Assembly: GCA_025726505.1 (NCBI GenBank)
Contig: GCA_025726505.1_4340.1
DNA: 42,918 bases
Source of the DNA: a phage
Reading direction: 5' to 3' (one strand)
The position numbers were made by a program, and so were the translations under genes. This document shows, one piece after another, positions 1-37,555 of the stretch; position 1 is the stretch's first letter; each line of letters starts with the position of its first letter. A model generated the notes under the pieces. That model made no database searches, was not told the DNA's origin, and saw only the letters and a list, made by a program, of their open reading frames with translations.

Positions 1-32
1 AAAAAAAAAATCCCGGCTGGGTCAGGGCCGGG
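1..32 (-). terminator. Rho-independent terminator ending the leftward early/lysis operon
   Basis: Stem CCCGGC (12-17) / GCCGGG (27-32) followed on the minus strand by a 10-nt U-run (A10 at 1-10 on plus strand), 67 nt after the endolysin stop. Confidence 0.6.
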
Positions 33-98
33 GTGGAACTGGAGAGCAGAGGGATGGAGCAGGAGGTGATTTAAGTATCGTCTGATTACTCTCAGGTG

Positions 99-587
99 TC
101 AACCTTTCACCGCGCGGCCAATAGCCTCTGCCTCCTGCCACGGTTTACCGTCGAACAGCGCCAGTCGCCCGGCGGTACGACGGCGCAGGCCAAGTAATGG
201 TTTGCCGTTCTGATTGATGAACAACGCCAGTTTAGCCCGCAGCGTCGCGATGTCGCCTGAGCGCAGTGCCTTCCCGGTCCCGGTAGTAGCCGCAATCGCA
301 CCAGCACCGGCGTTATACACCAGGTCGCACACAGCGTCGAACTGCGCCTGTGTCAGGGAGTGGTGTGCTGCCGCGTCAACCGCAGCTACGGCCTTAGCCA
401 TATCACGATTCAGTAACAGGAGGCCTTGTCCCGGGGTGATGGTCTTGCCTGGCGTTACGTCTGGCCCATAATGACCGTACCCAATAGTCAGGTACTTCTC
501 ATTTGGCGTAGCACGATACGCAGTTCCGCGGAACCCCTCAAATGCTGCGGTGAAATGCAACCCATCATCTGAAATGTTTCGAGACAC
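99..587 (-). CDS. Endolysin, GH24 (T4/P22-type) lysozyme
   Basis: Translation carries the phage lysozyme core AAFEGFRGTAYRATPNEKYLTIGYGHYG and aligns by eye with P22 gp19; ORF track 99-638 trimmed to in-frame GTG at 587 preceded by GGAGGA (595-600). Confidence 0.85.
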   Translation of the reverse strand: MSRNISDDGLHFTAAFEGFRGTAYRATPNEKYLTIGYGHYGPDVTPGKTITPGQGLLLLNRDMAKAVAAVDAAAHHSLTQAQFDAVCDLVYNAGAGAIAATTGTGKALRSGDIATLRAKLALFINQNGKPLLGLRRRTAGRLALFDGKPWQEAEAIGRAVKG

Positions 588-837
588 GCTTATGTCCTCC
601 GTATGACAGCCACGCCTGACGAATCTGGCGCAGCGCAACTAATGTGATTAACGTCTCAGGCAACGTTGGCGACATGCTGCCTTGTAACAGGTGGATACAT
701 CCGGCGGCGCATACGATAGCGGTCAGGATATAGAGCACCCGACCGAATAGCCCATCGTCCACGCTGGGATGGTACACATTAAACAGCGATGTGCCCCCGA
801 TTGCCAGCATACCGCCGAACCAGAATAACTCATTCAT
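565..837 (-). CDS. Holin-like / antiholin-like membrane protein (2 predicted TM helices)
   Basis: 90-aa product with hydrophobic segments LFWFGGMLAIGGTSLF and VLYILTAIVCAAGCIHLL; ATG at 837 preceded by GAGGAGG; overlaps upstream holin stop and endolysin start. Confidence 0.55.
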   Translation of the reverse strand: MNELFWFGGMLAIGGTSLFNVYHPSVDDGLFGRVLYILTAIVCAAGCIHLLQGSMSPTLPETLITLVALRQIRQAWLSYGGHKRVSKHFR

Positions 838-1138
838 CTGTGCCTCCTCGACGTGCGATGTATTCTCCGGCAACGATACTGGAGAGACGGGAATAGATGG
901 GCATCCAGAGAACGGCGATGATAAAGCCCAGGCCTGCTATTTCACGGTCGCCCGTGATGCCAAACCATTGAGCCGCGAGAGGTGCGCCAAACACGGCGCA
1001 GGTGAAGCCAGTAGCAATAAAGCACAAGCCGTCGATAGGGCCAGAAATAACGGACTTATGTTGTCGTAGCCCGATGACCCCTCCGGCGAATGCGGCAGCG
1101 AGAAGCCACCCCGTCACTGTTTCAGTAAATTTATCCAA
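830..1138 (-). CDS. Holin (3 predicted TM helices)
   Basis: 102-aa product with three hydrophobic segments and charged C-terminus (ARRGGTDE); TTG start with GGAGG 7 nt upstream; sits directly upstream of second membrane protein and endolysin. Confidence 0.6.
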   Translation of the reverse strand: MDKFTETVTGWLLAAAFAGGVIGLRQHKSVISGPIDGLCFIATGFTCAVFGAPLAAQWFGITGDREIAGLGFIIAVLWMPIYSRLSSIVAGEYIARRGGTDE

Positions 1139-2501: not shown

Positions 2502-3034
2502 TCGTAGTGAACCTCTTTTTCTTCTCCGCAAAGCCGGCACTTATTAGTCTCTACCCCGGCGGAATACTGCACTACCCTCCAATCGTGTTTGCATTCCTGA
2601 GTATCGTTTTTCGGTTTATATGCCTTGTCGTCCCACTCACGTTTACCACATTTAGAGCAAAGCTCACTACCAGGAACGTTGTTCGGATTGCCTTCGCTGA
2701 GAAACAACCCAGGCATAATAATCCAAGAGTGCTCGCATTCCTGAACGTCTTCCTTACGGCAACCGGATTGCTCGGGTCCGTGTTCGCCTACTACGTAGCT
2801 CTTCCATTTAGGCAGTGGGCCGCCGTGGTTGGTTACACGGTCGAAGTCCTCATTCATTAGTTTTATTGTTTCCTGCAACTCAGCCACCAGCGCCGAAGCA
2901 TCACGTAACTGGTTCTTGAGTGACAACACCTCATGGGCCAGGTCTTCGCACTGTTGCTTGTAGGGGTTGTTCGTTAGCTGCTGCCGTAGTTGGTTAAGCA
3001 GGAACTCGATTACTGCGTCGTTGTTACTGTTCAT
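2498..3034 (-). CDS. Coiled-coil protein with two tandem zinc-ribbon-like repeats
   Basis: 178-aa product; N-terminal heptad-like region (LLNQLRQQL, LKNQLRDASALVAELQETIKL); internal repeat QECEHSW...CSKCG and QECKHDW...CRLCG. Confidence 0.7.
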   Translation of the reverse strand: MNSNNDAVIEFLLNQLRQQLTNNPYKQQCEDLAHEVLSLKNQLRDASALVAELQETIKLMNEDFDRVTNHGGPLPKWKSYVVGEHGPEQSGCRKEDVQECEHSWIIMPGLFLSEGNPNNVPGSELCSKCGKREWDDKAYKPKNDTQECKHDWRVVQYSAGVETNKCRLCGEEKEVHYE

Positions 3035-3149
3035 CTTCTACCTCCCCGAAGAACGCGCACGCAGTATCTGCATCGCAAATAATTGGTCTGTCTGTTGTCA
3101 CATATGCCGATTGGCTCTCACCCAAAGTCATTTCGCTGTAATTAATCAT
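3024..3149 (-). CDS. Candidate 41-aa leader micro-ORF
   Basis: ATG 3149 preceded by GAGGAGAGAG; stop overlaps the start of the 2498-3034 gene; below the ORF-track size cutoff. Confidence 0.3.
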   Translation of the reverse strand: MINYSEMTLGESQSAYVTTDRPIICDADTACAFFGEVEDEQ

Positions 3150-3180
3150 CTTCTCTCTCTCCTCTCGCTTCGATAACTGA

Positions 3181-3209
3181 ATAGTATTCTATTATATCTG
3201 TGTGTGCAA
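3181..3209 (-). promoter_or_regulatory. Promoter-like element copy A (TTGCAC-N17-TACTAT with internal AATAG-N4-CTATT)
   Basis: Minus strand reads TTGCAC (3209-3204), 17-nt spacer, TACTAT (3186-3181); near-identical to copies at 4359-4387, 25820-25848 and 35100-35128. Confidence 0.5.
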
Positions 3210-3402
3210 GTAAATTTTATTGGTGTTTAGTGTCGCTAATTAACGACAGTTTCGTTGTTGCGATTTCCGCAAGAATCAGCGCCACTGTTGCGTTTCGTGA
3301 AAGTGTCGCCTTTTGACGACACTAAGCTAAAGTTGTACGCTGCTGTGTAGCAGCGTAAGTCACTCAGTCAATTAGTAACCTTTTGACCTGTTACACCACC
3401 TG

Positions 3403-3591
3403 TTATACCGGCGAGGGCGGCTCTGGTAACGGCATCCAGTGAGTAATATCACCGTGATATAAACTCTTTGCGGGACCCCAGTAGCCATCTGAATTAACCC
3501 GCATAACCTCACAGCCGACAAAACCATCAGTTACAAGAACGTATTCGTAAGGCTCCGGCATCCGCTCACTACACTTAATCCACTCGCTCAT
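3403..3591 (-). CDS. DUF551-like phage protein
   Basis: 62-aa product ends ...GDITHWMPLPEPPSPV, the characteristic DUF551 motif as recalled. Confidence 0.75.
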   Translation of the reverse strand: MSEWIKCSERMPEPYEYVLVTDGFVGCEVMRVNSDGYWGPAKSLYHGDITHWMPLPEPPSPV

Positions 3592-4324: not shown

Positions 4325-4358
4325 AACCCTCGCTCCTCTGTCTCGTTCCGATAAGTGA

Positions 4359-4387
4359 ATAGTATCCTATTATGTTGGGGTGTGCAA
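4359..4387 (-). promoter_or_regulatory. Promoter-like element copy B (TTGCAC-N17-TACTAT)
   Basis: Minus strand TTGCAC (4387-4382), 17-nt spacer, TACTAT (4364-4359); leader TTATCGGAACGAGA..GAGG resembles the leader after copy A. Confidence 0.5.
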
Positions 4388-7790: not shown

Positions 7791-7809
7791 TGAATAGTAC
7801 CATATTAAT
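7791..7809. promoter_or_regulatory. Operator-like motif copy (TGAATAGTACCATATTAAT)
   Basis: Imperfect copy of the AATAG-N4-CTATT core, 29 nt upstream of the XRE gene start. Confidence 0.4.
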
Positions 7810-7826: not shown

Positions 7827-7856
7827 TTGACAACATGAATAGTTAGCTATTATAGT
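7827..7856 (+). promoter_or_regulatory. Sigma70-like promoter with overlapping palindromic operator
   Basis: TTGACA (7827-7832), 18-nt spacer, TATAGT (7851-7856); spacer contains AATAGTTAGCTATT (7838-7851); 32 nt upstream of ATG 7888. Confidence 0.55.
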
Positions 7857-10170: not shown

Positions 10171-10199
10171 TTGACACCTGAATAGTTAACTATTATAGT
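10171..10199 (+). promoter_or_regulatory. Sigma70-like promoter with perfect palindromic operator
   Basis: TTGACA (10171-10176), 17-nt spacer, TATAGT (10194-10199); spacer contains perfect 14-bp palindrome AATAGTTAACTATT (10181-10194). Confidence 0.6.
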
Positions 10200-25819: not shown

Positions 25820-25848
25820 TTGCACACCCCAATATAATAGGGTACTAT
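25820..25848 (+). promoter_or_regulatory. Promoter-like element copy E (TTGCAC-N17-TACTAT)
   Basis: TTGCAC (25820-25825), spacer ACCCCAATATAATAGGG, TACTAT (25843-25848); 28 nt upstream of ATG 25877. Confidence 0.55.
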
Positions 25849-25876
25849 TCACATGTAACTTACTGAGGAAATAATT

Positions 25877-26203
25877 ATGCGTAAATTAGTACTAGCTCTG
25901 GGTTTTATGTCTTTTGCTACTTTTGGGTCTCCGTGCGAACAGGTATTTAGTGAATCTGTTCTTATGACTTCTGGTGTGCTCGAGAAAGCCGACCCTACTA
26001 TTGTAAAGGCGTTCAAGGACTCTACAGTTCGCGAGTGTGAGGCCGCCGTGGAGGTTGGTAAATCGGGCCTACCCCCGCAGGCCGTAACCTACACAGTGAT
26101 ACGTTCGGTAGAGAAAAACGGAGATGCTTTCTATAGCCTACTGACAGCCACCCGTCTGCAAATGGTAATGACAGGGTGGGCGATAGGCGCAGAAAGTAAA
26201 TAG
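25877..26203 (+). CDS. Small secreted/periplasmic protein (signal peptide)
   Basis: 108-aa product with N-terminus MRKLVLALGFMSFATFGSPC; two Cys; GAGGAA RBS. Confidence 0.6.
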   Translation: MRKLVLALGFMSFATFGSPCEQVFSESVLMTSGVLEKADPTIVKAFKDSTVRECEAAVEVGKSGLPPQAVTYTVIRSVEKNGDAFYSLLTATRLQMVMTGWAIGAESK

Positions 26204-26268
26204 TCGCCTTTATTTAAAGGAATGCACTGTGGTTAAATAGGACAAATCCTAAACACGAGGAAGTAAGC

Positions 26269-27399
26269 ATGGCCCAGAAGAAAATAACCGACGAACAGTT
26301 ACAGGAAGAATTGAACGCCGGGATGAAGATTATTGATATCGCCCGTAAATACGGCATCTCAGACCGCGTTATTCGTATCCGTAAAGCGAAGCTGGCTAAG
26401 AAAGGTGTAGGCCACGGGCGCGACGTTAGTCACCTTGTGCCGGACGGCTACAAGATTAAAGGCACGTCGTCCCTGGTGGACGAGTTCGGCAACACTAAGT
26501 TGCAATGGGTTAAGACTGACACCGATGCTGAACGTCAGGTCGAGTTGATGAAAGCCGTAATTGAAGGCATGAAGTCAGAGATTACACCTGTTGCGCCGGT
26601 TAAAGCCGTTCGCACCAAACGCGACGACAAGCTGCTCAACCTTTACACCGTGTCAGATTTCCATCTCGGTATGCTGGCATGGGCCGACGAGAGCGGCGAC
26701 GACTGGGATATGAAGATTGCGGAAGGCCTGTTCTCTCGATGGTTCGACGCGGCGTTTCAGAAAGCGCCGGACGCGGGAACAGGTGTTATTAACCTGCTAG
26801 GTGACCTTGCGCACTTCGATAGTCTGGTTGCCGTTACACCCGCAAGCGGTCACGCCCTTGACGCCGACACCCGTTATCAGAAACTTGTCCGTTACATGAT
26901 TCGTATGGTCCGCCGTGTCGTTGATATGGCGTTGGTTAAGCATAAAAATGTTCGCTTGCTTATCGTGCAAGGGAATCACGACGAATCGGGTATGATTTGG
27001 TTGGCTGAGATGTTCAGTACGCTGTACGACAATGAGCCGCGCGTGTTCGTCGATACGTCGCCGGATGTTTACAAGATGGTGCAACACGGCAAAACTACGC
27101 TGTTCTTCCATCACGGGCATAAAGCACGATTCGACGCTATCGAGCCTGTGATGATTGCCAAGTTCCGCAAAGCGTTCGGCGAGAGCGTCTATAGTTACGC
27201 ACATGTAGGACACCTTCACCACCAGAAGATTGTTGAAAGCCGTAATATGGTTGTCGAACAACATCGCACCCTGGCGGCTAAAGACGCCTACGCCTCCCGA
27301 GGCGGCTGGATGTCAGGTCGTAGTGCAAATGTAATTACTTATAGCGCCGAATACGGCGAGGTCGCACGTTTAACTATTTCACCGGAGATGCTGGGATGA
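26269..27399 (+). CDS. HTH-domain fused to calcineurin-like metallophosphoesterase
   Basis: N-terminal HTH (IIDIARKYGISDRVIRIRKAK) then phosphoesterase motifs SDFHLG, GDLAHFD, QGNHDE, FFHHGH, HVGHLHH; GAGGAAG RBS. Confidence 0.75.
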   Translation: MAQKKITDEQLQEELNAGMKIIDIARKYGISDRVIRIRKAKLAKKGVGHGRDVSHLVPDGYKIKGTSSLVDEFGNTKLQWVKTDTDAERQVELMKAVIEGMKSEITPVAPVKAVRTKRDDKLLNLYTVSDFHLGMLAWADESGDDWDMKIAEGLFSRWFDAAFQKAPDAGTGVINLLGDLAHFDSLVAVTPASGHALDADTRYQKLVRYMIRMVRRVVDMALVKHKNVRLLIVQGNHDESGMIWLAEMFSTLYDNEPRVFVDTSPDVYKMVQHGKTTLFFHHGHKARFDAIEPVMIAKFRKAFGESVYSYAHVGHLHHQKIVESRNMVVEQHRTLAAKDAYASRGGWMSGRSANVITYSAEYGEVARLTISPEMLG

Positions 27400-31735: not shown

Positions 31736-32077
31736 TTAAGACACAGTTGCTACAGTGCTGCTGGAGATAATATTACCATACACATCGTGAACAACCACTT
31801 TATACGTACCAGAATCGGTGGTAGCGAGCGAAGTTTTCTCGTAGGTGGAGGCGTTGGCACCAGGGATAGCGTTGTTATTCTTATACCACTGGTAAGAGTA
31901 CGGCTCGAGTCCACCAACTACAACTACGGTAAGAGTCATCGTCTGCCCAGTAGACTTGGTAGTGGTAGCGTCAAGCGCAGTAGAGAAAGACGCAGGGGCG
32001 ATATTCGCCATATTGATTTTAGCGCCTACGGTATCGGCGGACACACCGGTAACACGACGTTTAATTACATCAACCAT
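31736..32077 (-). CDS. Ig-like domain protein (probable capsid decoration)
   Basis: 113-aa product with Ig-like signature LEPYSYQWYKNNNAI...DSGTYKVVVHD. Confidence 0.6.
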   Translation of the reverse strand: MVDVIKRRVTGVSADTVGAKINMANIAPASFSTALDATTTKSTGQTMTLTVVVVGGLEPYSYQWYKNNNAIPGANASTYEKTSLATTDSGTYKVVVHDVYGNIISSSTVATVS

Positions 32078-32089
32078 TTTTAAGCTCCT

Positions 32090-32389
32090 TTAGCTTACGG
32101 TTCCTGCGTTTTTAAGCGCAGTCAACAGATTTGCTACGGTAGTGCGCAGCGCGGTTACATCAGTTCGAAGTTTGTTGTACTCCGCTACAAGAGCATCGAA
32201 CTCGGTCTTAGTCGGGGCATCAGCAGACTGCGCTCCTTCACCAGCAGTAATGGCCGCGGGGGCGGCTACAGTAGCTGACTTTTTAACCCCGCCAACTACG
32301 CTGGTAGTAGCCGGCGTTACTGGGATGTCAAAGTCGCCGAAGTCGACATTCTGGAGACTACGCGGTAAGCCTTTTCCGGTCTTAGCCAT
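32090..32389 (-). CDS. Hypothetical structural protein
   Basis: 99-aa ORF immediately downstream of major capsid gene; Ala/Thr-rich. Confidence 0.45.
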   Translation of the reverse strand: MAKTGKGLPRSLQNVDFGDFDIPVTPATTSVVGGVKKSATVAAPAAITAGEGAQSADAPTKTEFDALVAEYNKLRTDVTALRTTVANLLTALKNAGTVS

Positions 32390-32448
32390 AATTTACCTCT
32401 TAGTAAATGAAAAGAGGGACCGAAGTCCCTCCCGATTATAGCTTAACC

Positions 32449-33498
32449 TTAAGCACCGACACCAGTTACCAGGAAGGCAATAGGTACATGCTTACGGTCA
32501 ACAACGCGGTTCCAGTTGGAGGCGTTTGCCAGGTCCTGCCAGGAAGCAGAGCGTGCTACGGTTTCAGTACCGTTACCGGTGATTACCGCACTGGTGAAGC
32601 TGTAGCCCAGTGGGTGCAGCAACCAGGTCTTACGGGTCCACAGGGTTTCAACACCGCCGCCGTTACCGCGAGACGCTTCACGCTCGTATTCCAGAGGGTT
32701 GGACGGGTTGCCCTCGCCGTAACCGATAGCACCGTTGCCGAAGATGATGGAGATGAACTTACGGCTAGAGCCAGTGCCGACTACGGTCATGCTGTCGTCA
32801 ACAATCACGCGGTAGCCCTGGTAGGTGGCAAACATGGTGTTGTTGTCGGCATCACGGATGAAGTCGATGAGCTGTTGCTTACGCGCCTGTGCATACACAA
32901 AGCTGTGCATCGCGATTGCACCCAGCACTTCACCGCTGTTACCCATCAACGCATCACCCATGGTCTGGGTAGCATCAATGAACGCACCGGAATCGAATCC
33001 CAGAGTTGCAGACACGTCGATAACCATGTCGTTCTGCTCGTGGTAGGCATCGGTAGCCGTTACGTTGTCGTTGTACAGACCGAGGGCGGTAGCAATCAGA
33101 CGGCGCTGAGCCTGACGCTGCCAGAAGTTATCCAGACGAGAGGCAACAGATTGCAGCGGGTTCTGGCTGGTCAGTTCAACAGTCAGGTCAGCTTGTCCGA
33201 AACCTTCGTTCAGATAAGCGACGCGCGCCATCATCTCACCGGTTTGTACGTTGCGCGGAGTGGCGATGTCCTGGTATACATCGTTCGAGTAGTTCGGCTC
33301 GATAGAAGTATCAATCGCTTTCCAGAAAGGAATATTAGCGATGCTGGACGGGCCACGAGCAATATCTGCTGCGTACGGGGTAGGGGTCAGGATGCCGGAC
33401 TGGAAGAACGCGGTTTTCTCTACCGGGTCCTCAGTCATATAAGACAGAAGGACGGGTACGTTGCCAGTTACGATATCGCCGATAGTGGTAATTGCCAT
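32449..33498 (-). CDS. Major capsid protein
   Basis: 349-aa ORF directly downstream of scaffold gene; GAGGA RBS; size and position typical of HK97-fold capsid proteins. Confidence 0.75.
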   Translation of the reverse strand: MAITTIGDIVTGNVPVLLSYMTEDPVEKTAFFQSGILTPTPYAADIARGPSSIANIPFWKAIDTSIEPNYSNDVYQDIATPRNVQTGEMMARVAYLNEGFGQADLTVELTSQNPLQSVASRLDNFWQRQAQRRLIATALGLYNDNVTATDAYHEQNDMVIDVSATLGFDSGAFIDATQTMGDALMGNSGEVLGAIAMHSFVYAQARKQQLIDFIRDADNNTMFATYQGYRVIVDDSMTVVGTGSSRKFISIIFGNGAIGYGEGNPSNPLEYEREASRGNGGGVETLWTRKTWLLHPLGYSFTSAVITGNGTETVARSASWQDLANASNWNRVVDRKHVPIAFLVTGVGA

Positions 33499-33500
33499 TA

Positions 33501-34202
33501 TTATTTCCTCAGGGCTTTAAGTTGCCGTTCAAATTCGGCAGGGTTCGATTTGTACAGAGCTAAACGCTCCGCTTCGTTCATATCTTTAAACGCTGGTGCG
33601 GCCCCGCCGCCTTTGCCGCCGGAAGCCCCGCCGCCGGAAGCTGCATTTGCTTTAATCAAATGCGAAAACGCTTTGTGTTCACGCAGGTATTTGCGGAACT
33701 GTTCCGGGTCAGTCGTGATTACGTTGCCATCTGCGCCGACAAACTTAGTAACCACATCATCACCTTCAAACTCAGTCTTAACGAACGGCGCAAGAATGTC
33801 TACTGCTTCGGGGGTGATGAAGTCACCCGCGAAAGAGCCTAACACCGCTTTACGTTCGCTGCCGAGGATGCGCTCTGCCATTTTGGAGATGCGACCATCT
33901 TTCTCGGCTAACACCGGGTCATACTGGCTACGAATCGTCTTTTCGAACTCGTCCATCTTACCAGCGGCTTTCAAAGCCTCCTGGTGTGCACGCTGCCGCT
34001 CTTCTTCAGCCTCTTTTGCTTTACGAGCAGCTTCTTTCTTCTCGTTCAGCAATGCTTCCTGGTTAGCCTTAAGCCCCGCAACTTCTTTCTCAATCAGCGC
34101 TTGAACTTCTTCGGCTGTGTACATTTTAGGAGCGTCACCGCCACCTGATTTATCTTCTGCTCCAGCTTCTTCCTGGAACGGATAACGTAAAAAACGATTC
34201 AT
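33501..34202 (-). CDS. Scaffolding protein
   Basis: Charged coiled-coil product (LKANQEALLNEKKEAARKAKEAEEERQRAHQEALKAAGK) upstream of capsid gene; start placed at ATG 34202 (track TTG 34256). Confidence 0.6.
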   Translation of the reverse strand: MNRFLRYPFQEEAGAEDKSGGGDAPKMYTAEEVQALIEKEVAGLKANQEALLNEKKEAARKAKEAEEERQRAHQEALKAAGKMDEFEKTIRSQYDPVLAEKDGRISKMAERILGSERKAVLGSFAGDFITPEAVDILAPFVKTEFEGDDVVTKFVGADGNVITTDPEQFRKYLREHKAFSHLIKANAASGGGASGGKGGGAAPAFKDMNEAERLALYKSNPAEFERQLKALRK

Positions 34203-34284
34203 AGTCAGTATGTCCCCTGGACGTTGGAACCCGGGCCACCCGGATTTACATGTCAAGAATAAATTATTCCAACATGCAAGGCAA

Positions 34285-34548
34285 CTATTCCAGAATATTC
34301 CTCACGTAATCCTGCAACATGAATACTTTCAGTCTCAGTTGCCGTACGCATTCGGCGTTCTGAACGTCGATAGCTAAATCCTCGTCAGCGTCGCTACTTG
34401 GCGCCGCCAGCTTGCACGGCGGCTGCATCGTCATCGTATCCGGGGATGGAATTGGCGTTTGTGACGGCACGGGACTTGAGCAGGACGCGAGCATCGTCGA
34501 AAGTGCACACGCTGCGGTCAGGCGTTTTAATGTACTTAACGACTTCAC
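34285..34548 (-). CDS. o-spanin (Rz1-like outer-membrane lipoprotein)
   Basis: Signal peptide with lipobox LASC, Pro-rich mature region (SSPVPSQTPIPSPD...QPPC); overlaps the i-spanin gene out of frame. Confidence 0.55.
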   Translation of the reverse strand: MKSLSTLKRLTAACALSTMLASCSSPVPSQTPIPSPDTMTMQPPCKLAAPSSDADEDLAIDVQNAECVRQLRLKVFMLQDYVRNILE

Positions 34549-34780
34549 GGGTAATTACCTCAGATTTCGTCTTGCCTTCGTTGTCAGCGGCTGCGGCCTT
34601 CGATTCATCCTGCTGCTGCCGTTGTGTTTTCTTCGCTAACTCAGCCTGTGCTTTCTGCTGTTGCTGCGAAACGAGATTCGCCCGGCCCTCATTCCAGCCA
34701 CTGCGGTACTGGTAGATGCCGTGTGCGTAAGCCAGGATGATGAAACATGCTCCCGCTACGACAGTTGCTTTAAGATTCAT
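34394..34780 (-). CDS. i-spanin (Rz-like)
   Basis: 128-aa product with N-terminal TM anchor (VVAGACFIILAYAHGIY) then charged helical region (QQQKAQAELAKKTQRQQQDE). Confidence 0.55.
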   Translation of the reverse strand: MNLKATVVAGACFIILAYAHGIYQYRSGWNEGRANLVSQQQQKAQAELAKKTQRQQQDESKAAAADNEGKTKSEVITREVVKYIKTPDRSVCTFDDARVLLKSRAVTNANSIPGYDDDAAAVQAGGAK

Positions 34781-34804
34781 GTTTCTCCTTTCTCGATAAG
34801 TAAA

Positions 34805-34824
34805 GCCCCGCCATAAAGCGGGGC
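34805..34824 (-). other. GC-rich hairpin upstream of spanin genes
   Basis: GCCCCGC-CATAAA-GCGGGGC, 25 nt upstream of the i-spanin start on the minus strand. Confidence 0.45.
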
Positions 34825-35031
34825 GCTAGTCCTTATCATTTAAACATAAAAACGGCGTAATCTCAGTAAACCAGCTACTTTTTACACAAGCAATAGAGTA
34901 TGGCCCTTCCGAACGCGTCAGCGTAACTACACTCAGGACTTACGTCCCGCTCCGTTACCTGCCCGCGCCGCGGTCGCTTGTTCATACTTCACAAGCTCAG
35001 GTGGAGCTTAGCACATTTTCAGTGAAAAGTC

Positions 35032-35047
35032 AACTATTCGAATAGTT
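35032..35047. promoter_or_regulatory. Perfect 16-bp palindrome AACTATTCGAATAGTT
   Basis: Self-complementary; abuts a minus-strand TTGACT -35-like hexamer; related half-site array at 34262-34299. Confidence 0.55.
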
Positions 35048-35099
35048 TATTCCAACATTTACAATTGAGCGGAATAACTGGAATACGTAGACAAATAGT

Positions 35100-35128
35100 T
35101 TGCAGACACCAATATAATAGGGTACTAT
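35100..35128 (+). promoter_or_regulatory. Promoter-like element copy F (TTGCAG-N17-TACTAT)
   Basis: TTGCAG (35100-35105), spacer ACACCAATATAATAGGG, TACTAT (35123-35128); 27 nt upstream of ATG 35156. Confidence 0.55.
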
Positions 35129-35155
35129 TCAGTTAACTTAAACAGGAGATGAAAA

Positions 35156-35971
35156 ATGAAACATGTAATCAGTTTTTCAGGCGGCAGAACATCAGCGTAC
35201 ACAACCCTTGAAGTGCTTAAACTTCACCCGGATGCTGAGGTTATTTATATGGATACCGGGGCGGAGCACCCAAAGACCTACGAGTTCATCCGTAATTTTG
35301 CTAAGCACTTTAATATTACGGTGACGTGCCTGCGGGTTGTTCCTAACCCAGAAATGCGTAAGGCCAGTACCTATGAAGTCCTTAGCGTAGATGAAATAGG
35401 TCCTGACCTGGAGCCGTGGCGCAGAATGCTGCGCAAGTACGGTCACCCATACGTCGGCGGCGCGTTCTGCACAGACCGGATGAAGACGGTGCCGTTCACC
35501 AAATACTGCGACGAGAAATACGGCAAAGGAAATTATGAGCGCTGGTTGGGAATTCGCTGTGACGAGCCAAAACGACTTGGCAACCGTGGACCGGGATTCC
35601 ATTACCTTGCAGACATTAGCGACTTCGAAAAGCAAGACATACTCGAGTGGTGGTCGCAACAATCATTCGACCTTGGCATTGAAGAACACTTAGGTAACTG
35701 CGTATTTTGCATCAAGAAGAGTTTACAGAAGGTTGCACTAGCGGCGAAAGACGAGCCACAACTCGCAGCGGAGTTCTGGCAGATGATTCAGGACGAAGAT
35801 AAAAAGGACGACAAGGTAATGTACCGTTCGAACCGGAGCCTTGGCGAGGTCATCGCTTTGTTTGGCAGTGAAGACCGCGCAGAACTTGCGGTCCGTATGC
35901 GCTCAATGCGGCAGTACGACACAGGGTCATGTAGTGAAAGTTGTGAGGCATTTTCTTCCGAAGAATACTAA
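35156..35971 (+). CDS. PAPS reductase-family PP-loop enzyme
   Basis: N-terminal PP-loop HVISFSGGRTSAY; C-terminal Cys motifs GNCVFC and GSCSESC; single opposite-strand gene inside the head module. Confidence 0.75.
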   Translation: MKHVISFSGGRTSAYTTLEVLKLHPDAEVIYMDTGAEHPKTYEFIRNFAKHFNITVTCLRVVPNPEMRKASTYEVLSVDEIGPDLEPWRRMLRKYGHPYVGGAFCTDRMKTVPFTKYCDEKYGKGNYERWLGIRCDEPKRLGNRGPGFHYLADISDFEKQDILEWWSQQSFDLGIEEHLGNCVFCIKKSLQKVALAAKDEPQLAAEFWQMIQDEDKKDDKVMYRSNRSLGEVIALFGSEDRAELAVRMRSMRQYDTGSCSESCEAFSSEEY

Positions 35972-35994
35972 ACTTCGTTAAAGAAATAAAACTA

Positions 35995-36013
35995 AGGCCC
36001 CATAACGGGGCCT
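35995..36013. terminator. Bidirectional terminator after the PAPS-reductase-like gene
   Basis: AGGCCCC-ATAAC-GGGGCCT followed by TTTTATCATT. Confidence 0.7.
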
Positions 36014-36017
36014 TTTA

Positions 36018-36479
36018 TCATTCTGGCTTAGTAACCTTCGCCGCTTTACTTACCGCCTCTACGCCATCGGCATCGGTAACTTTCACGAAGTAATCACCCA
36101 CCGCGTTGACCGTCAGAGACAAAGCCTCTTCCGGCGCGTTAACCACTTCCTTTCCGTCTTTAAACCAGGTAAGAGAGTACGGTGCTTTGCCCGCCTTAAC
36201 CTCGACAGTGATAGTTGCGCTGCCGTCCGCCAGTTCAGTGTCTTTCGGTTGCACAGAGAAATACACATCGCCAGCGTCCGCCAGATACGGAATCTCGTAA
36301 AGCATGCCCGCCGCAGGTAGCGCAATACCGGTTTTATCCGCAAACGGCATATCGTCTACCGGTGTGCCTAGTACACTTTCGTCCCCAACAGACACCACGT
36401 TCTCACCGGAGCCAGACACGCGAGCAAACTGGACTACGCGACGCGACGGTACATCAGTTACTTTGAAAAAGCCCATCAT
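36018..36479 (-). CDS. Ig-like domain protein (second decoration-type protein)
   Basis: 153-aa product with KAPYSLTWFKDGKEV...GDYFVKVTD, paralogous to the Ig-like motif at 31736-32077. Confidence 0.55.
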   Translation of the reverse strand: MMGFFKVTDVPSRRVVQFARVSGSGENVVSVGDESVLGTPVDDMPFADKTGIALPAAGMLYEIPYLADAGDVYFSVQPKDTELADGSATITVEVKAGKAPYSLTWFKDGKEVVNAPEEALSLTVNAVGDYFVKVTDADGVEAVSKAAKVTKPE

Positions 36480-37555
36480 TATTCCCCTTTCAGATAATCA
36501 GCAACACGTTTATCGAGTTCCGCCATCTCTTTAATAGTCAGCGGACGCCCGAAACCATCTACAGATATTACGCGAAACTCCTCCGGCGATATACCGCTGT
36601 TACGGAAAATCTTACCGCGAACAGGGCCGAGCGCCTGGTCCTGAAACCATGCCGGTTGTTGTTTCAGGAACTCGTAATAGGTGGTGTCGGCGCTTACCTG
36701 AGTGCCGCCGTCTGCGCCCTTAGCCGCGCGTTTTGCGCCTTTATCGAGGAAGTCGAACTCTGAACTGATTACCGGGGCCGTGCACGACCGACAATTCGGA
36801 TGGGCTGGGGGCGTCGGACCTTTACCGATTTCCCACGTCATTCCGTCCCTGGCTCTGCAAATCGTACTGGTACGGCTGTCCAGCGTTGACACCCACTCGT
36901 ACTTCTCGATGATGTCGTCGTTCTGACGGTACGTCTCGTTACGGGCTTCATTGGATACGTGAGACAGCGCGGTGCGGATTACCGTAGCGACGTTGCGCTC
37001 AGAGATGTCCGCCAGCCCGCCAGCGCCCACAACATTCTTAACAATCTGCCGTGTTGTCTGGCCCTGTACGAAACCCATCTTAACGCCAGTTACCAGGCGC
37101 GCGACTTCTGTTTCACCCCAGCCAGTCATCAGCTTAGTGAAATCAACAGGCTTGTCGCTTAACGATAAGGGTTGAAACTCGGCAGCGGCCCACACCTGCT
37201 CGGCGGTAGGTGTAACAAATTCCGCGTTAACGTTAGTCGTCAGTGTCTTCACGTTCCACTCGGCCTCATACGCCGCCAGTTCCTTTAGGTCTTCTGTCAG
37301 CTTCGTTTGCCAGTCGCCAGTTAGCCCGGTAAGCGCTTCTTCCAGGTTGCGTAACAGTTTATTAAGACGCGCGGTGCTTCGCCCGTCGTCACCGAATAAC
37401 AGCACCTGCCGTTTGATTTCATCCCGCATTTCCTGAATGAACGGTGCGAGGTCTTTCACTTCGCCGGATGCGGCGCGTTGTAGCCATATCTGGTGGCTGA
37501 TTAGGGATGTAAGTAAGCTCATAGATAAACCCTGTGGCGCTAAAGTTAATAGCAT
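36479..37555 (-). CDS. Head morphogenesis protein (SPP1 gp7 / Mu F-like)
   Basis: Family motif WEIGKGPTPPAHPNCRSCTAPV; follows portal gene; alternative ATG at 37522. Confidence 0.75.
   Translation of the reverse strand: MLLTLAPQGLSMSLLTSLISHQIWLQRAASGEVKDLAPFIQEMRDEIKRQVLLFGDDGRSTARLNKLLRNLEEALTGLTGDWQTKLTEDLKELAAYEAEWNVKTLTTNVNAEFVTPTAEQVWAAAEFQPLSLSDKPVDFTKLMTGWGETEVARLVTGVKMGFVQGQTTRQIVKNVVGAGGLADISERNVATVIRTALSHVSNEARNETYRQNDDIIEKYEWVSTLDSRTSTICRARDGMTWEIGKGPTPPAHPNCRSCTAPVISSEFDFLDKGAKRAAKGADGGTQVSADTTYYEFLKQQPAWFQDQALGPVRGKIFRNSGISPEEFRVISVDGFGRPLTIKEMAELDKRVADYLKGE

Follow-up and report, generated by a model that had tools for sequence, protein, structure and literature searches.

The spanins of K1G, K1H, K1ind1-3, Jersey and SETP3 (also SE2) were grouped into one overlapped spanin family in a bioinformatic survey (Kongari 2018, BMC Bioinformatics 19:326, PMC6139136), in which the Jersey family is characterized by a 155-bp overlap between both genes and by conserved residues Cys45 and Cys67 of the o-spanin (PMC6139136). 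For two phages of the Guernseyvirinae, Schulenberg (PMC6763661) and fBC-Eco01 (PMC9825357), the holin/antiholin and endolysin genes were stated to be separate from the overlapping i-/o-spanin genes. The record of phage Snoke (MK931441) labels the two genes analyzed here as i-spanin and o-spanin, whereas those of Bas74 (SonjaBuckley_Bas74) and SETP3 label both of them as Rz-like spanin. Our literature searches found no complementation or deletion experiments on spanins of the Jersey family or of the Guernseyvirinae, only annotations and the 2018 survey.

We analyzed a stretch of phage DNA of 42,918 nt (hereafter, the window). With high confidence, this window is the complete, circularly permuted genome of a Kagunavirus (subfamily Guernseyvirinae), and two of its ORFs encode its two-component spanin, a member of the "Jersey" overlapped spanin family. 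The pair reproduces the family membership, the 155-nt overlap and the Cys45/Cys67 residues. It is the same pair as in the described members, with the same +1 overlap, the same lengths (128 and 87 aa) and the same location, flanked by the head-decoration and scaffold genes, and nothing substantive sets it apart; the lipobox of this genome is the variant LASC, its cysteine being residue 23, and in many relatives the motif reads LSAC, LSGC or LNGC and the cysteine is residue 22, one position earlier. Snoke and Bas74 contain the same genes at the same coordinates relative to scaffold and capsid, and differ in the variable slot upstream. Neither the pair nor its family is new, and the geometry of the overlap and the separation from holin and endolysin have likewise been described, in the literature and in GenBank annotations of close relatives.

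The locus also resembles Rz/Rz1 of phage lambda, with a type II inner-membrane protein whose periplasmic domain is predicted to be at least partly helical, a small Pro-rich outer membrane lipoprotein in the +1 frame, and periplasmic cysteines. The Rz1 gene of lambda lies entirely within Rz, but the o-spanin overruns the i-spanin stop codon here, as in the overlapped class, and the lambda pair forms the last part of the S-R-Rz cassette, whereas here it lies 8.2 kb off, in the head module. Precedents for such unlinked spanins are pseT.3/pseT.2 of T4 and gp18.5/18.7 of T7, which are located away from the holin and/or endolysin genes; these belong to other protein families, genome contexts and gene architectures.

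Table 1. Location of the features of the spanin locus and of the lysis cassette within the 42,918-nt window.
Feature	Coordinates	Strand	Basis
Direct repeat GTATTCC-AG-TTATTCC, just upstream of promoter candidate	35071..35086	(-)	Conservation
Candidate sigma-70 promoter, extended -10: TTGACT, 17 nt, (TGc)TAAGCT	35005..35033	(-)	By eye; conservation
Leader, ~175 nt, predicted transcription start to hairpin	34825..34998	(-)	Sequence; relatives
36-aa ORF in leader	34875-34985	(-)	"Hypothetical" in relatives
G+C-rich hairpin GCCCCGC-UUUAU-GGCGGGGC followed by UUUACUUAU	34805..34824	(-)	Terminator scan
i-spanin Shine-Dalgarno AAGGAG	34785..34790	(-)	4 nt upstream of ATG
i-spanin gene, 128 aa	34394..34780	(-)	ORF; phrog_2536; Snoke annotation
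Codons of i-spanin transmembrane segment (residues 5-23)	34712..34768	(-)	Kyte-Doolittle
o-spanin Shine-Dalgarno GAGG, inside i-spanin coding sequence	34558..34561	(-)	9 nt upstream of GTG
o-spanin gene, 87 aa, GTG start	34285..34548	(-)	ORF; phrog_5672, phrog_1267; Snoke annotation
i-/o-spanin overlap, 155 nt, o frame +1 to i	34394..34548	(-)	Sequence
o-spanin lipobox L-A-S-C, Cys23 predicted as lipid-modified first mature residue	34480..34491	(-)	Read by reverse-complementing bases
Head scaffolding protein gene	33501..34256	(-)	phrog_206, 3.5e-56; relatives' annotation
Major capsid protein gene	32449..33498	(-)	Relatives' annotation
Terminator after capsid gene	32412-32433	(-)	Terminator scan
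Bidirectional terminator	35994..36014	(.)	Terminator scan
Holin-endolysin cassette: holin 830-1138, second holin 565-873, endolysin 99-638	99..1138	(-)	Profiles; Snoke annotation
Strong intrinsic terminator after endolysin, CCCGGC-loop-GCCGGG + T10	1..33	(-)	Sequence

Genomic position of the spanin genes

The ends of the window are contiguous in 52 relatives, and the linear record was opened at the endolysin terminator, the window starting inside the T-run of this element. The Snoke record likewise shows a terminator in the intergenic region that follows its endolysin gene. An initial annotation of this DNA had placed the spanins about 33 kb from the holin-endolysin cassette, which is correct for the linear window (33,147 bp) but not for the circular map, where 8,236 bp separate them and the spanins follow the endolysin, on the same strand, about 8.2 kb downstream; the apparent gap of 33 kb is a consequence of where the circular map was cut open. 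Small nin-like genes, the terminase, the portal and head genes occupy the interval between endolysin and spanins on the circle. The location of the holin and endolysin genes given in the same annotation was corroborated by matches of the two holins to PHROG holin profiles (2.7e-29 and 2.5e-33) and of the endolysin to Pfam Phage_lysozyme (1.3e-27), although the true start of the endolysin is probably later than that of the annotated ORF.

The spanins sit between the head-decoration gene and the scaffold/capsid genes, with the scaffold gene immediately downstream of the o-spanin. All the related loci that were long enough on both sides (45/45) share one gene order, in which the Hoc-like gene is followed by a variable slot, the spanins and then scaffold and capsid. 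What fills the slot upstream of the spanins differs: in this genome it is a PAPS-reductase-like gene, whereas Snoke has a sliding-clamp-like gene there and Bas74 a small ORF. The bidirectional terminator closes both the minus-strand unit of portal, head-morphogenesis and Hoc-like genes and the inserted plus-strand gene, and relatives without the insert have an equivalent terminator after the Hoc-like gene. The earlier claim that the pair heads the scaffold/capsid unit, in an operon separate from that of holin and endolysin, agrees with the predicted terminators at 33-1 (-) and 35994-36014 and with the promoter candidate described below. The spanins are thus predicted to belong to a different transcription unit from the holin-endolysin cassette, and from these signals we infer a unit that would run from the promoter through a leader of ~200 nt, a hairpin, the spanins, the scaffold and the capsid to a terminator.

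A conserved promoter candidate, leader and hairpin upstream of the spanins

The pattern of the sigma-70 promoter candidate has a single exact match in the genome, and in Jerseyvirus-like loci the candidate is kept as TAGACT, 17 nt, (TGt)TACGCT. A sigma-70 scan of positions 32000-36600 reported no promoter, the candidate falling under its threshold. The direct repeat that precedes it forms an invariant block in both Kagunavirus-like and Jerseyvirus-like loci and may be bound by a regulator; an inverted copy, GGAATA, lies downstream. Two readings of motifs were considered and rejected: the upstream repeat GTATTCCAGTTATTCC as the mark of a regulon, because the genome contains no other convincing copy (one close match only), and the palindromic motif GAATAGTACCCTATTAT as part of the spanin promoter, because it is absent from relatives without the insert. 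This palindromic motif has seven copies, most of them just upstream of plus-strand genes.

The 36-aa ORF within the leader has no start codon in one related locus (L028) or in the Jerseyvirus-like loci. The RNAalifold consensus structure of the leader showed compensatory changes in 7 of its 23 pairs. Searches against Rfam gave no match on the whole window at the gathering threshold, and those retrieved for the leader at E values up to 10 were at chance level (14-15 bits). The terminator-like hairpin, whose stem ends 24 nt upstream of the ATG of the i-spanin, was present in all the relatives examined (47/47) with compensatory changes in its stem; its U-tract is weak, particularly in the Jerseyvirus-like versions. 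Transcripts from the promoter candidate would meet this hairpin before reaching the i-spanin, so expression may depend on more than promoter activity, and the hairpin could terminate most transcripts ahead of the spanins.

In the late region PR'-6S RNA-tR' of lambda, the promoter is followed by a leader some 200 nt long that ends in a terminator-like hairpin, beyond which lie the lysis and head genes. The layout is the same here, but there is no sequence similarity, no Rfam match and no Q-like protein among those scanned: PHROG searches with 18 proteins encoded in the neighborhood of the lysis cassette, of the nin-like region and of the inserts found no Q-like antiterminator or late activator. 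A "late transcriptional activator" match inside an exonuclease was discarded as chance-level (E 7e-4, with no stretch passing alone). Repeat, promoter, leader and hairpin could be read together as an undescribed attenuation/antitermination switch, likened to lambda PR'/6S/tR' or to HK022 put, that would gate spanin, scaffold and capsid expression in the Guernseyvirinae and in which the 36-aa "protein" would be part of a non-coding regulatory RNA, a proposal that we regard as unlikely. The conserved leader with its hairpin is the only possibly new item at this locus.

Position of the spanins and timing of their expression

It had been proposed in the initial annotation that the separation of the lysis genes ties outer membrane disruption to late structural expression, which is a reasonable but hypothetical reading of the gene order. 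The chances are even, in our estimate, that the pair is indeed a spanin whose position follows no timing logic, reflecting instead a frozen modular history in the Guernseyvirinae, with the cassette and the spanin/capsid unit expressed together late, in which case the separation would tie nothing beyond what joint late expression already ties. The late-direction genes (lysis cassette, terminase, head, spanins and tail) are all on the same strand and form one continuous arc of the circular map, and the position of the spanins is fixed across Kagunavirus-like and Jerseyvirus-like loci, both of which favor this explanation. Furthermore, lambda Rz/Rz1 are inert until the cell wall is degraded, and spanins of this kind would not need precise timing. 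Against this explanation, the spanin unit has a promoter-like element of its own that is conserved, an upstream repeat and a conserved hairpin, which suggest regulated expression. In the one transcriptome study of a Kagunavirus that we found (PMC12645636), lysozyme and capsid are described together in the structural or "middle" phase, a result that favors joint expression and gives no sign of a timing difference; the spanins are neither mentioned nor resolved in that paper.

Properties of the i-spanin and o-spanin

The i-spanin gene starts with ATG, and its Shine-Dalgarno sequence is kept as AAGGAG or AAGGGG in all the relatives examined. The protein has a single hydrophobic stretch at residues 5-23, ATVVAGACFIILAYAHGIY, with a mean Kyte-Doolittle value of 1.72 over 19 aa (the best 19-aa window), and outside of it the sequence is polar, charged and rich in Ala, Gln and Lys. 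By the criteria of Summer 2007 and Kongari 2018 it has the organization of an i-spanin, that is, a small protein with one N-terminal transmembrane domain and the remainder predicted to be periplasmic. For the Snoke homologue (92% identical), an N-in/C-out topology by TMHMM is noted in the record. A single-sequence AlphaFold model predicted a long helix at residues 3-82, with pLDDT values of 75-87 as far as about residue 60, and another at residues 95-104; confidence is low in the C-terminal third (pLDDT <50 for residues 81-128). In the alignment of relatives Cys92 is invariant.

Profile searches assigned the i-spanin to phrog_2536, "Rz-like spanin" (E 6.9e-55), and its homologues are present in 630 phage records. 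In tblastn searches, identities were 61.1% with SETP3 (4e-28), 63.7% with SETP13 (1e-31) and 92-98% with Kagunaviruses. The profile built from its alignment had no match among PDB sequences at E values up to 1.

The signal peptide of the o-spanin is MKSLSTLKRLTAACALSTMLAS|C, with K2, K8 and R9 in the n-region, followed by the h-region and by the lipobox L-A-S-C23. Position +2 is Ser, not Asp, and the mature part of 65 aa contains 8 Pro, 7 of them within the first 22 residues. By rule-based reading, this corresponds to an o-spanin: a signal peptidase II signal with its lipobox cysteine, a residue other than Asp at +2, and a mature part that is short and rich in Pro. Matches were found to phrog_5672 (3.1e-30) and phrog_1267 (7.2e-17), both of them "Rz-like spanin", and the protein is 59-93% identical across the Kagunavirus, SETP3 and SETP13 loci. 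A ribosome binding site is annotated at the same place as the GAGG sequence in the Snoke record. Many relatives call one or both genes hypothetical, or cut the o-spanin to 47 aa.

A strict lipoprotein-signal scan of the genome in six frames returned the o-spanin and one other candidate, antisense inside a minus-strand gene, leaving the lipobox of the o-spanin as the one credible signal of this type; the same rule-based scan of all six frames found no further lipoprotein or spanin candidate. These results bear out the initial description of the locus as a charged protein, described there as helical, with a transmembrane anchor that overlaps, out of frame, a lipoprotein with an LASC lipobox and a Pro-rich mature region: the ORFs and the transmembrane stretch were found as described, the lipobox and the prolines can be read directly from the sequence, and the checks for a lipoprotein signal (rule-based scan) and a transmembrane segment (Kyte-Doolittle) were both positive. 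The i-spanin/o-spanin architecture that had been assigned on this basis holds as well, as the pair displays all the sequence hallmarks of an overlapped two-component spanin and belongs to a catalogued family.

Pfam searches gave no match to Rz (Phage_lysis) or Rz1, the best related one being DUF2514 (E 0.019, 15.5 bits versus a cut-off of 26). As homology to the lambda Rz/Rz1 families is not detectable, the spanin mechanism has to be deduced from the architecture, and this leaves some room for envelope proteins of another role, for instance a superinfection-exclusion lipoprotein with its membrane partner (T5 Llp, Cor-like), the outer membrane being disrupted by something else. Such a role, which would also accord with the literature searched containing no experimental test of the Jersey spanin family, is very improbable in view of the full spanin signature of the locus (type II membrane protein, Pro-rich outer membrane lipoprotein, +1 overlap and periplasmic cysteines in both proteins) and of a genome that offers no alternative spanin candidate. 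The i-spanin also matches three other Rz-like PHROGs, weakly but consistently, and one relative (L040) carries a "separated" variant of the Jersey spanin family in the same genomic slot, matching the spanin evolution described in the 2018 survey (PMC6139136).

Conservation and selection in the overlapping genes

In the overlap lie the codons for the last 51 residues of the i-spanin and for the signal peptide and Pro-rich linker of the o-spanin, which extends 109 nt beyond the i-spanin stop codon. Conservation was analyzed in 47 related loci that align over the spanin pair without gaps (62-98% identity). Both frames are open in all of them, with a GTG or ATG start codon for the o-spanin at the same position and its Shine-Dalgarno sequence kept (47/47 in each case). 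The lipobox cysteine (at position 22 or 23) is kept in 46 of the 47 relatives, as are Cys45 and Cys67. The overlap architecture is also conserved in 46 of the 47, L040 having an overlap of 14 nt of the "separated" type. Both subunits have conserved periplasmic cysteines able to form disulfides, Cys92 in the i-spanin and Cys45 and Cys67 in the o-spanin.

Codon-position diversity follows the i frame up to the stop codon of the i-spanin and, from precisely that point, the o frame. The pN/pS ratio was 0.33 for the part encoding only the i-spanin, and 0.44 (i frame) and 0.90 (o frame) for the overlap, whereas for the part encoding only the o-spanin (109 nt) it was 0.115 in the o frame versus 1.0 and 2.5 in the other frames. 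The latter part is under strong purifying selection. Within the overlap, hardly any purifying selection acts on the o-spanin frame itself, which is expected for a signal peptide and a linker, yet provides no positive evidence. An unexpressed chance open frame within and after the i-spanin gene might present such a ratio of ~0.9, and several records annotate one gene only or call them hypothetical, but the selection on the 109 nt downstream effectively refutes this origin for the 87-aa ORF, and the conserved start, Shine-Dalgarno sequence, open frame and three cysteines, along with a genuine lipoprotein signal found nowhere else in the genome, reduce its probability to practically nil.

Proposed mode of action

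Taking the pair as a spanin, we infer localization, complex formation and membrane disruption by analogy with lambda Rz/Rz1. The N-terminal helix would anchor the i-spanin in the inner membrane, and a domain predicted to be helical would reach into the periplasm. The o-spanin would be translated from the internal GTG, in the +1 frame, on the i-spanin mRNA, then exported, lipid-modified at Cys23 and, because Ser occupies position +2, sorted to the inner leaflet of the outer membrane. The C-terminal parts of both proteins would bind each other through the peptidoglycan mesh, probably as a disulfide-linked complex involving Cys92 of the i-spanin and Cys45 and Cys67 of the o-spanin. Upon release of the endolysin by the two holins, degradation of the wall would free the spanin complexes, and lysis would be completed when these fuse the two membranes, inner and outer, or disrupt them.

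Implications

As a discovery the spanin pair matters little, being correct but ordinary; the analysis provides the correct annotation for both genes. It also illustrates that distances taken from a linearized, circularly permuted genome can mislead (33 kb versus 8.2 kb here). The element formed by promoter, leader and hairpin could be the point at which late head-gene expression is regulated in the Guernseyvirinae, a phage group much used for therapy and biocontrol.

Genome identity and position of the lysis genes

A 3.5-kb stretch around the spanin genes matches 485 phage records. Kagunavirus LM02P1 ranks first (95.6% identity); many Escherichia Kagunaviruses come next with about 92%, and Salmonella Jerseyviruses reach 80-90%. 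When 700 bases from each end of the window were joined, the resulting sequence proved contiguous in 52 relatives. The window is thus an entire genome, circularly permuted, from the subfamily Guernseyvirinae, and distances across it must be read on the circle. The cut that linearised the record falls in the T-run of the strong terminator located after the endolysin gene. Past the junction, the minus strand carries a promoter-like site for the unit after this terminator, then about nine small nin-like genes and, further along, a bidirectional terminator, followed by the spanin unit.

The holin and endolysin genes do lie at the position given in the initial annotation, closed by their own terminator, but the separation of about 33 kb from the spanins that it had proposed is a product of the linearisation of the record: on the circle, 8,236 bp separate the endolysin from the spanins, which share its strand (the Snoke figure is about 8.6 kb). 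Location of spanins apart from holin and endolysin has already been published for phages Schulenberg (PMC6763661) and fBC-Eco01 (PMC9825357), and the sole Kagunavirus transcriptome paper found assigns lysozyme and capsid to one expression phase, with the spanins unmentioned (PMC12645636). That the separation ties outer-membrane disruption to late structural expression, as the initial annotation proposed, stands as a hypothesis. All 45 loci that reach far enough on both sides share the order head-morphogenesis gene, Hoc-like decoration gene, a variable slot of about 0-1.2 kb, spanins, scaffold and major capsid protein. The endolysin ORF as called mechanically has a TTG start and a length of 179 aa, and shares 74 nt with the second holin gene; its Snoke counterpart has an annotated length of 167 aa, so translation probably begins at a start codon further downstream.

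Features of the spanin region and of related sites in the window
Feature	Position	Strand	Remarks
Terminator after endolysin	33-1	-	strong
Holins and endolysin	99-1138	-	followed by terminator 33-1
Endolysin ORF	99-638	-	
GAATAGTACCCTATTAT copies	3179-3195, 4357-4373, 7792-7808, 7837-7853, 10180-10196	+	
GAATAGTACCCTATTAT copies	25834-25850, 35114-35130	-	
Tail-module insert	25877-27399	+	
Terminator after capsid gene	32412-32433		
o-spanin	34285-34548	-	87 aa; GTG start, GAGG upstream
i-spanin	34394-34780	-	128 aa; ATG start, AAGGAG upstream
Lipobox	34480-34491	-	L-A-S-C, o-spanin
G+C-rich hairpin	34805-34824	-	then UUUACUUAU; stem end 24 nt upstream of i-spanin ATG
36-aa ORF	34875-34985	-	in leader; 'hypothetical protein' in Snoke and Bas74
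Promoter candidate	35005-35033	-	TTGACT, 17 nt, TGcTAAGCT; extended -10
Direct repeat	35071-35086	-	GTATTCC-AG-TTATTCC; block conserved between Kagunavirus-like and Jerseyvirus-like loci
PAPS-reductase-like gene	35156-35971	+	
Bidirectional terminator	35994-36014		
Promoter-like site	42896-42868	-	TTGACT, 17 nt, TATATT

Architecture of the spanin pair

The proposal of a membrane-anchored protein overlapping, out of frame, a lipoprotein with lipobox LASC agrees with the features found. The only hydrophobic segment of the i-spanin covers residues 5-23 (Kyte-Doolittle 1.72), the remainder being polar and rich in Ala, Gln and Lys; a single-sequence AlphaFold model, of acceptable confidence for the first ~60 residues only, gives a long helix (3-82) and a short one (95-104). 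Cys92 is invariant in the i-spanin alignment, as are Cys45 and Cys67 in that of the o-spanin. The o-spanin signal peptide (MKSLSTLKRLTAACALSTMLAS, ending before Cys) is of the textbook lipoprotein type, with Ser at +2; under the E. coli sorting rule, Ser at this position directs a lipoprotein to the outer membrane. The mature protein of 65 aa is proline-rich, as had been described, with seven of its eight prolines within the first 22 residues. Strict lipoprotein-signal rules applied to all six frames of the circularised genome returned the o-spanin ORF and one antisense artefact.

The architecture of the pair predicts a mode of action like that of lambda Rz/Rz1. The i-spanin would be anchored in the inner membrane and the o-spanin lipoprotein would sit in the outer membrane, with their C-terminal parts joined through the wall and disulfide-linked; removal of peptidoglycan by the endolysin would then free the complexes, and the membranes would be destroyed or fused. 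A literature search found no experimental test of this mechanism in the "Jersey" spanin family.

Two overlapping genes

The two genes share 155 nt, with the o-spanin in the +1 frame. Both proteins are present in all of 48 related loci fetched from IMG/VR (i-spanin identity 62-98%). In the 47 loci that align without gaps, both frames are open with a GTG or ATG start at the same position, and the lipobox Cys (position 22 or 23) is kept in 46, the exception being L040. Nucleotide diversity by codon position has the pattern of the i-spanin frame as far as the i-spanin stop codon, beyond which it takes that of the o-spanin frame. Pairwise pN/pS was 0.33 for the i frame in the part coding for i-spanin alone, 0.44 for the i frame and 0.90 for the o frame in the overlap, and 0.115 for the o frame in the 109 nt coding for o-spanin alone, with control frames at 1.0-2.5. 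These values by region and frame indicate that both genes are real. Constraint on the overlap comes mostly from the i-spanin; all that the o-spanin contributes there is its signal peptide and a linker.

Within o-spanin residues 14-24 (window 34477-34509), the lipobox drifts across the family, as compared with loci L005-L051 from IMG/VR. It is LASC with Cys23 in this genome and LSAC with Cys22 in other Kagunavirus-like loci; Jerseyvirus-like loci have LSGC or an atypical form, LNGC. The signal peptide is nearly neutral in its own frame (pN/pS 0.9), yet the lipoprotein signal is always retained. Three relatives (L035, L038 and L051) carry a quite different transmembrane segment at i-spanin residues 5-27 (AAIITTACSAFLVFAYGKYNYLQ), their periplasmic domains being otherwise of Kagunavirus or Jerseyvirus type, which suggests that the membrane anchor was swapped by recombination.

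A catalogued spanin family

The identification as spanins was borne out by PHROGs matches of the i-spanin to phrog_2536 'Rz-like spanin' (6.9e-55) and three weaker spanin PHROGs, and of the o-spanin to phrog_5672 (3.1e-30) and phrog_1267 (7.2e-17), both 'Rz-like spanin'. Because a Pfam search of both proteins gave nothing significant (DUF2514 only, E 0.019), the pair is, at the level of sequence, without detectable homology to lambda Rz/Rz1. The same two genes are annotated as i-spanin and o-spanin in Snoke, whose record note refers to the lipobox and to the outer spanin of K1ind2, and as "Rz-like spanin (x2)" in Bas74 and SETP3. Kongari et al. (2018) described a "Jersey" family of overlapped spanins in 27 phages, including K1G, K1H, K1ind1-3, Jersey and SETP3, in which the genes share 155 bp and o-spanin positions 45 and 67 are always Cys (PMC6139136); overlap and cysteines are the same in this genome. 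The spanin pair thus belongs to a catalogued family and occupies its usual, already published position.

In a tblastn search the i-spanin had matches in 630 phage records, SETP3 (61%) and SETP13 (64%) among them; partial matches in Dhillonviruses may be the shorter second subfamily, EP23 to SO-1, of PMC6139136. Locus L040 (IMG/VR UViG 3300045988_013393, 3001-3589) has a "separated" variant in the same genomic slot, resembling that of FSL_SP-031 (PMC6139136): an i-spanin of 118 aa and an o-spanin of 81 aa with lipobox ITGC overlap by 14 nt. The L040 o-spanin signal peptide is unrelated; the C-terminal half of the mature protein is still homologous.

Inserts and a palindromic motif

In this genome the variable slot, which separates the Hoc-like gene from the spanin leader, holds a PAPS-reductase-like gene (Pfam PAPS_reduct, 1.8e-08; PHROG 33262, 9e-102) as an insert on the strand opposite to its neighbours. 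None of the 47 IMG/VR relatives that span the slot has this gene, and among 50,697 phage records only Salmonella phage S4lw carries it (83% identity); elsewhere the slot is filled by small ORFs, a RusA-like gene or a gene resembling a sliding clamp. A second opposite-strand insert, in the tail module, carries two genes, one for a protein of 108 aa with unknown function and the other DNA-repair-exonuclease-like (PHROG 704, 5e-165). The near-palindromic motif GAATAGTACCCTATTAT occurs seven times in the window (0.04 expected), mostly just 5' of plus-strand genes, and precedes both inserts within the minus-strand structural arc by about 26 nt. It matches the 'phage promoter' consensus motif of fBC-Eco01 (PMC9825357) and likely serves as a promoter or operator of the early or middle phase, travelling along with the inserts.

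Candidate promoter, leader and hairpin upstream of the spanins

With a promoter candidate upstream and a terminator after the capsid gene, we infer that the spanin pair heads the predicted scaffold/capsid unit, as the initial annotation had it. In Jerseyvirus-like loci the promoter candidate reads TAGACT, 17 nt, TGtTACGCT, and both groups retain the TG of the extended -10 and the T-A---T positions. The conserved block with the direct repeat also holds an inverted GGAATA. Some 200 nt of leader lie 3' of the promoter candidate, and compensatory changes affect seven of the 23 base pairs predicted in its RNA. The 36-aa ORF is without a start codon in L028 and also in Jerseyvirus-like loci, where the ATG is lost to an 11-nt deletion, and the surrounding RNA segments are conserved despite this loss; this stretch is probably a non-coding leader RNA and not a gene. 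The hairpin, terminator-like and standing between promoter candidate and spanin genes, was found in 47 of 47 relatives, with compensatory stem variants between genera (CCCCGC/GCGGGG, CCCTGC/GCAGGG, CCCGGC/GCCGGG and CCCGAC/GTCGGG).

In layout, the region 34781-35090(-) resembles lambda PR'/6S RNA/tR'. Rfam gave no family match, and no Q-like antiterminator was found among 18 proteins scanned. The conserved leader and hairpin are the sole feature here for which we found no description, and this region may merit separate study.
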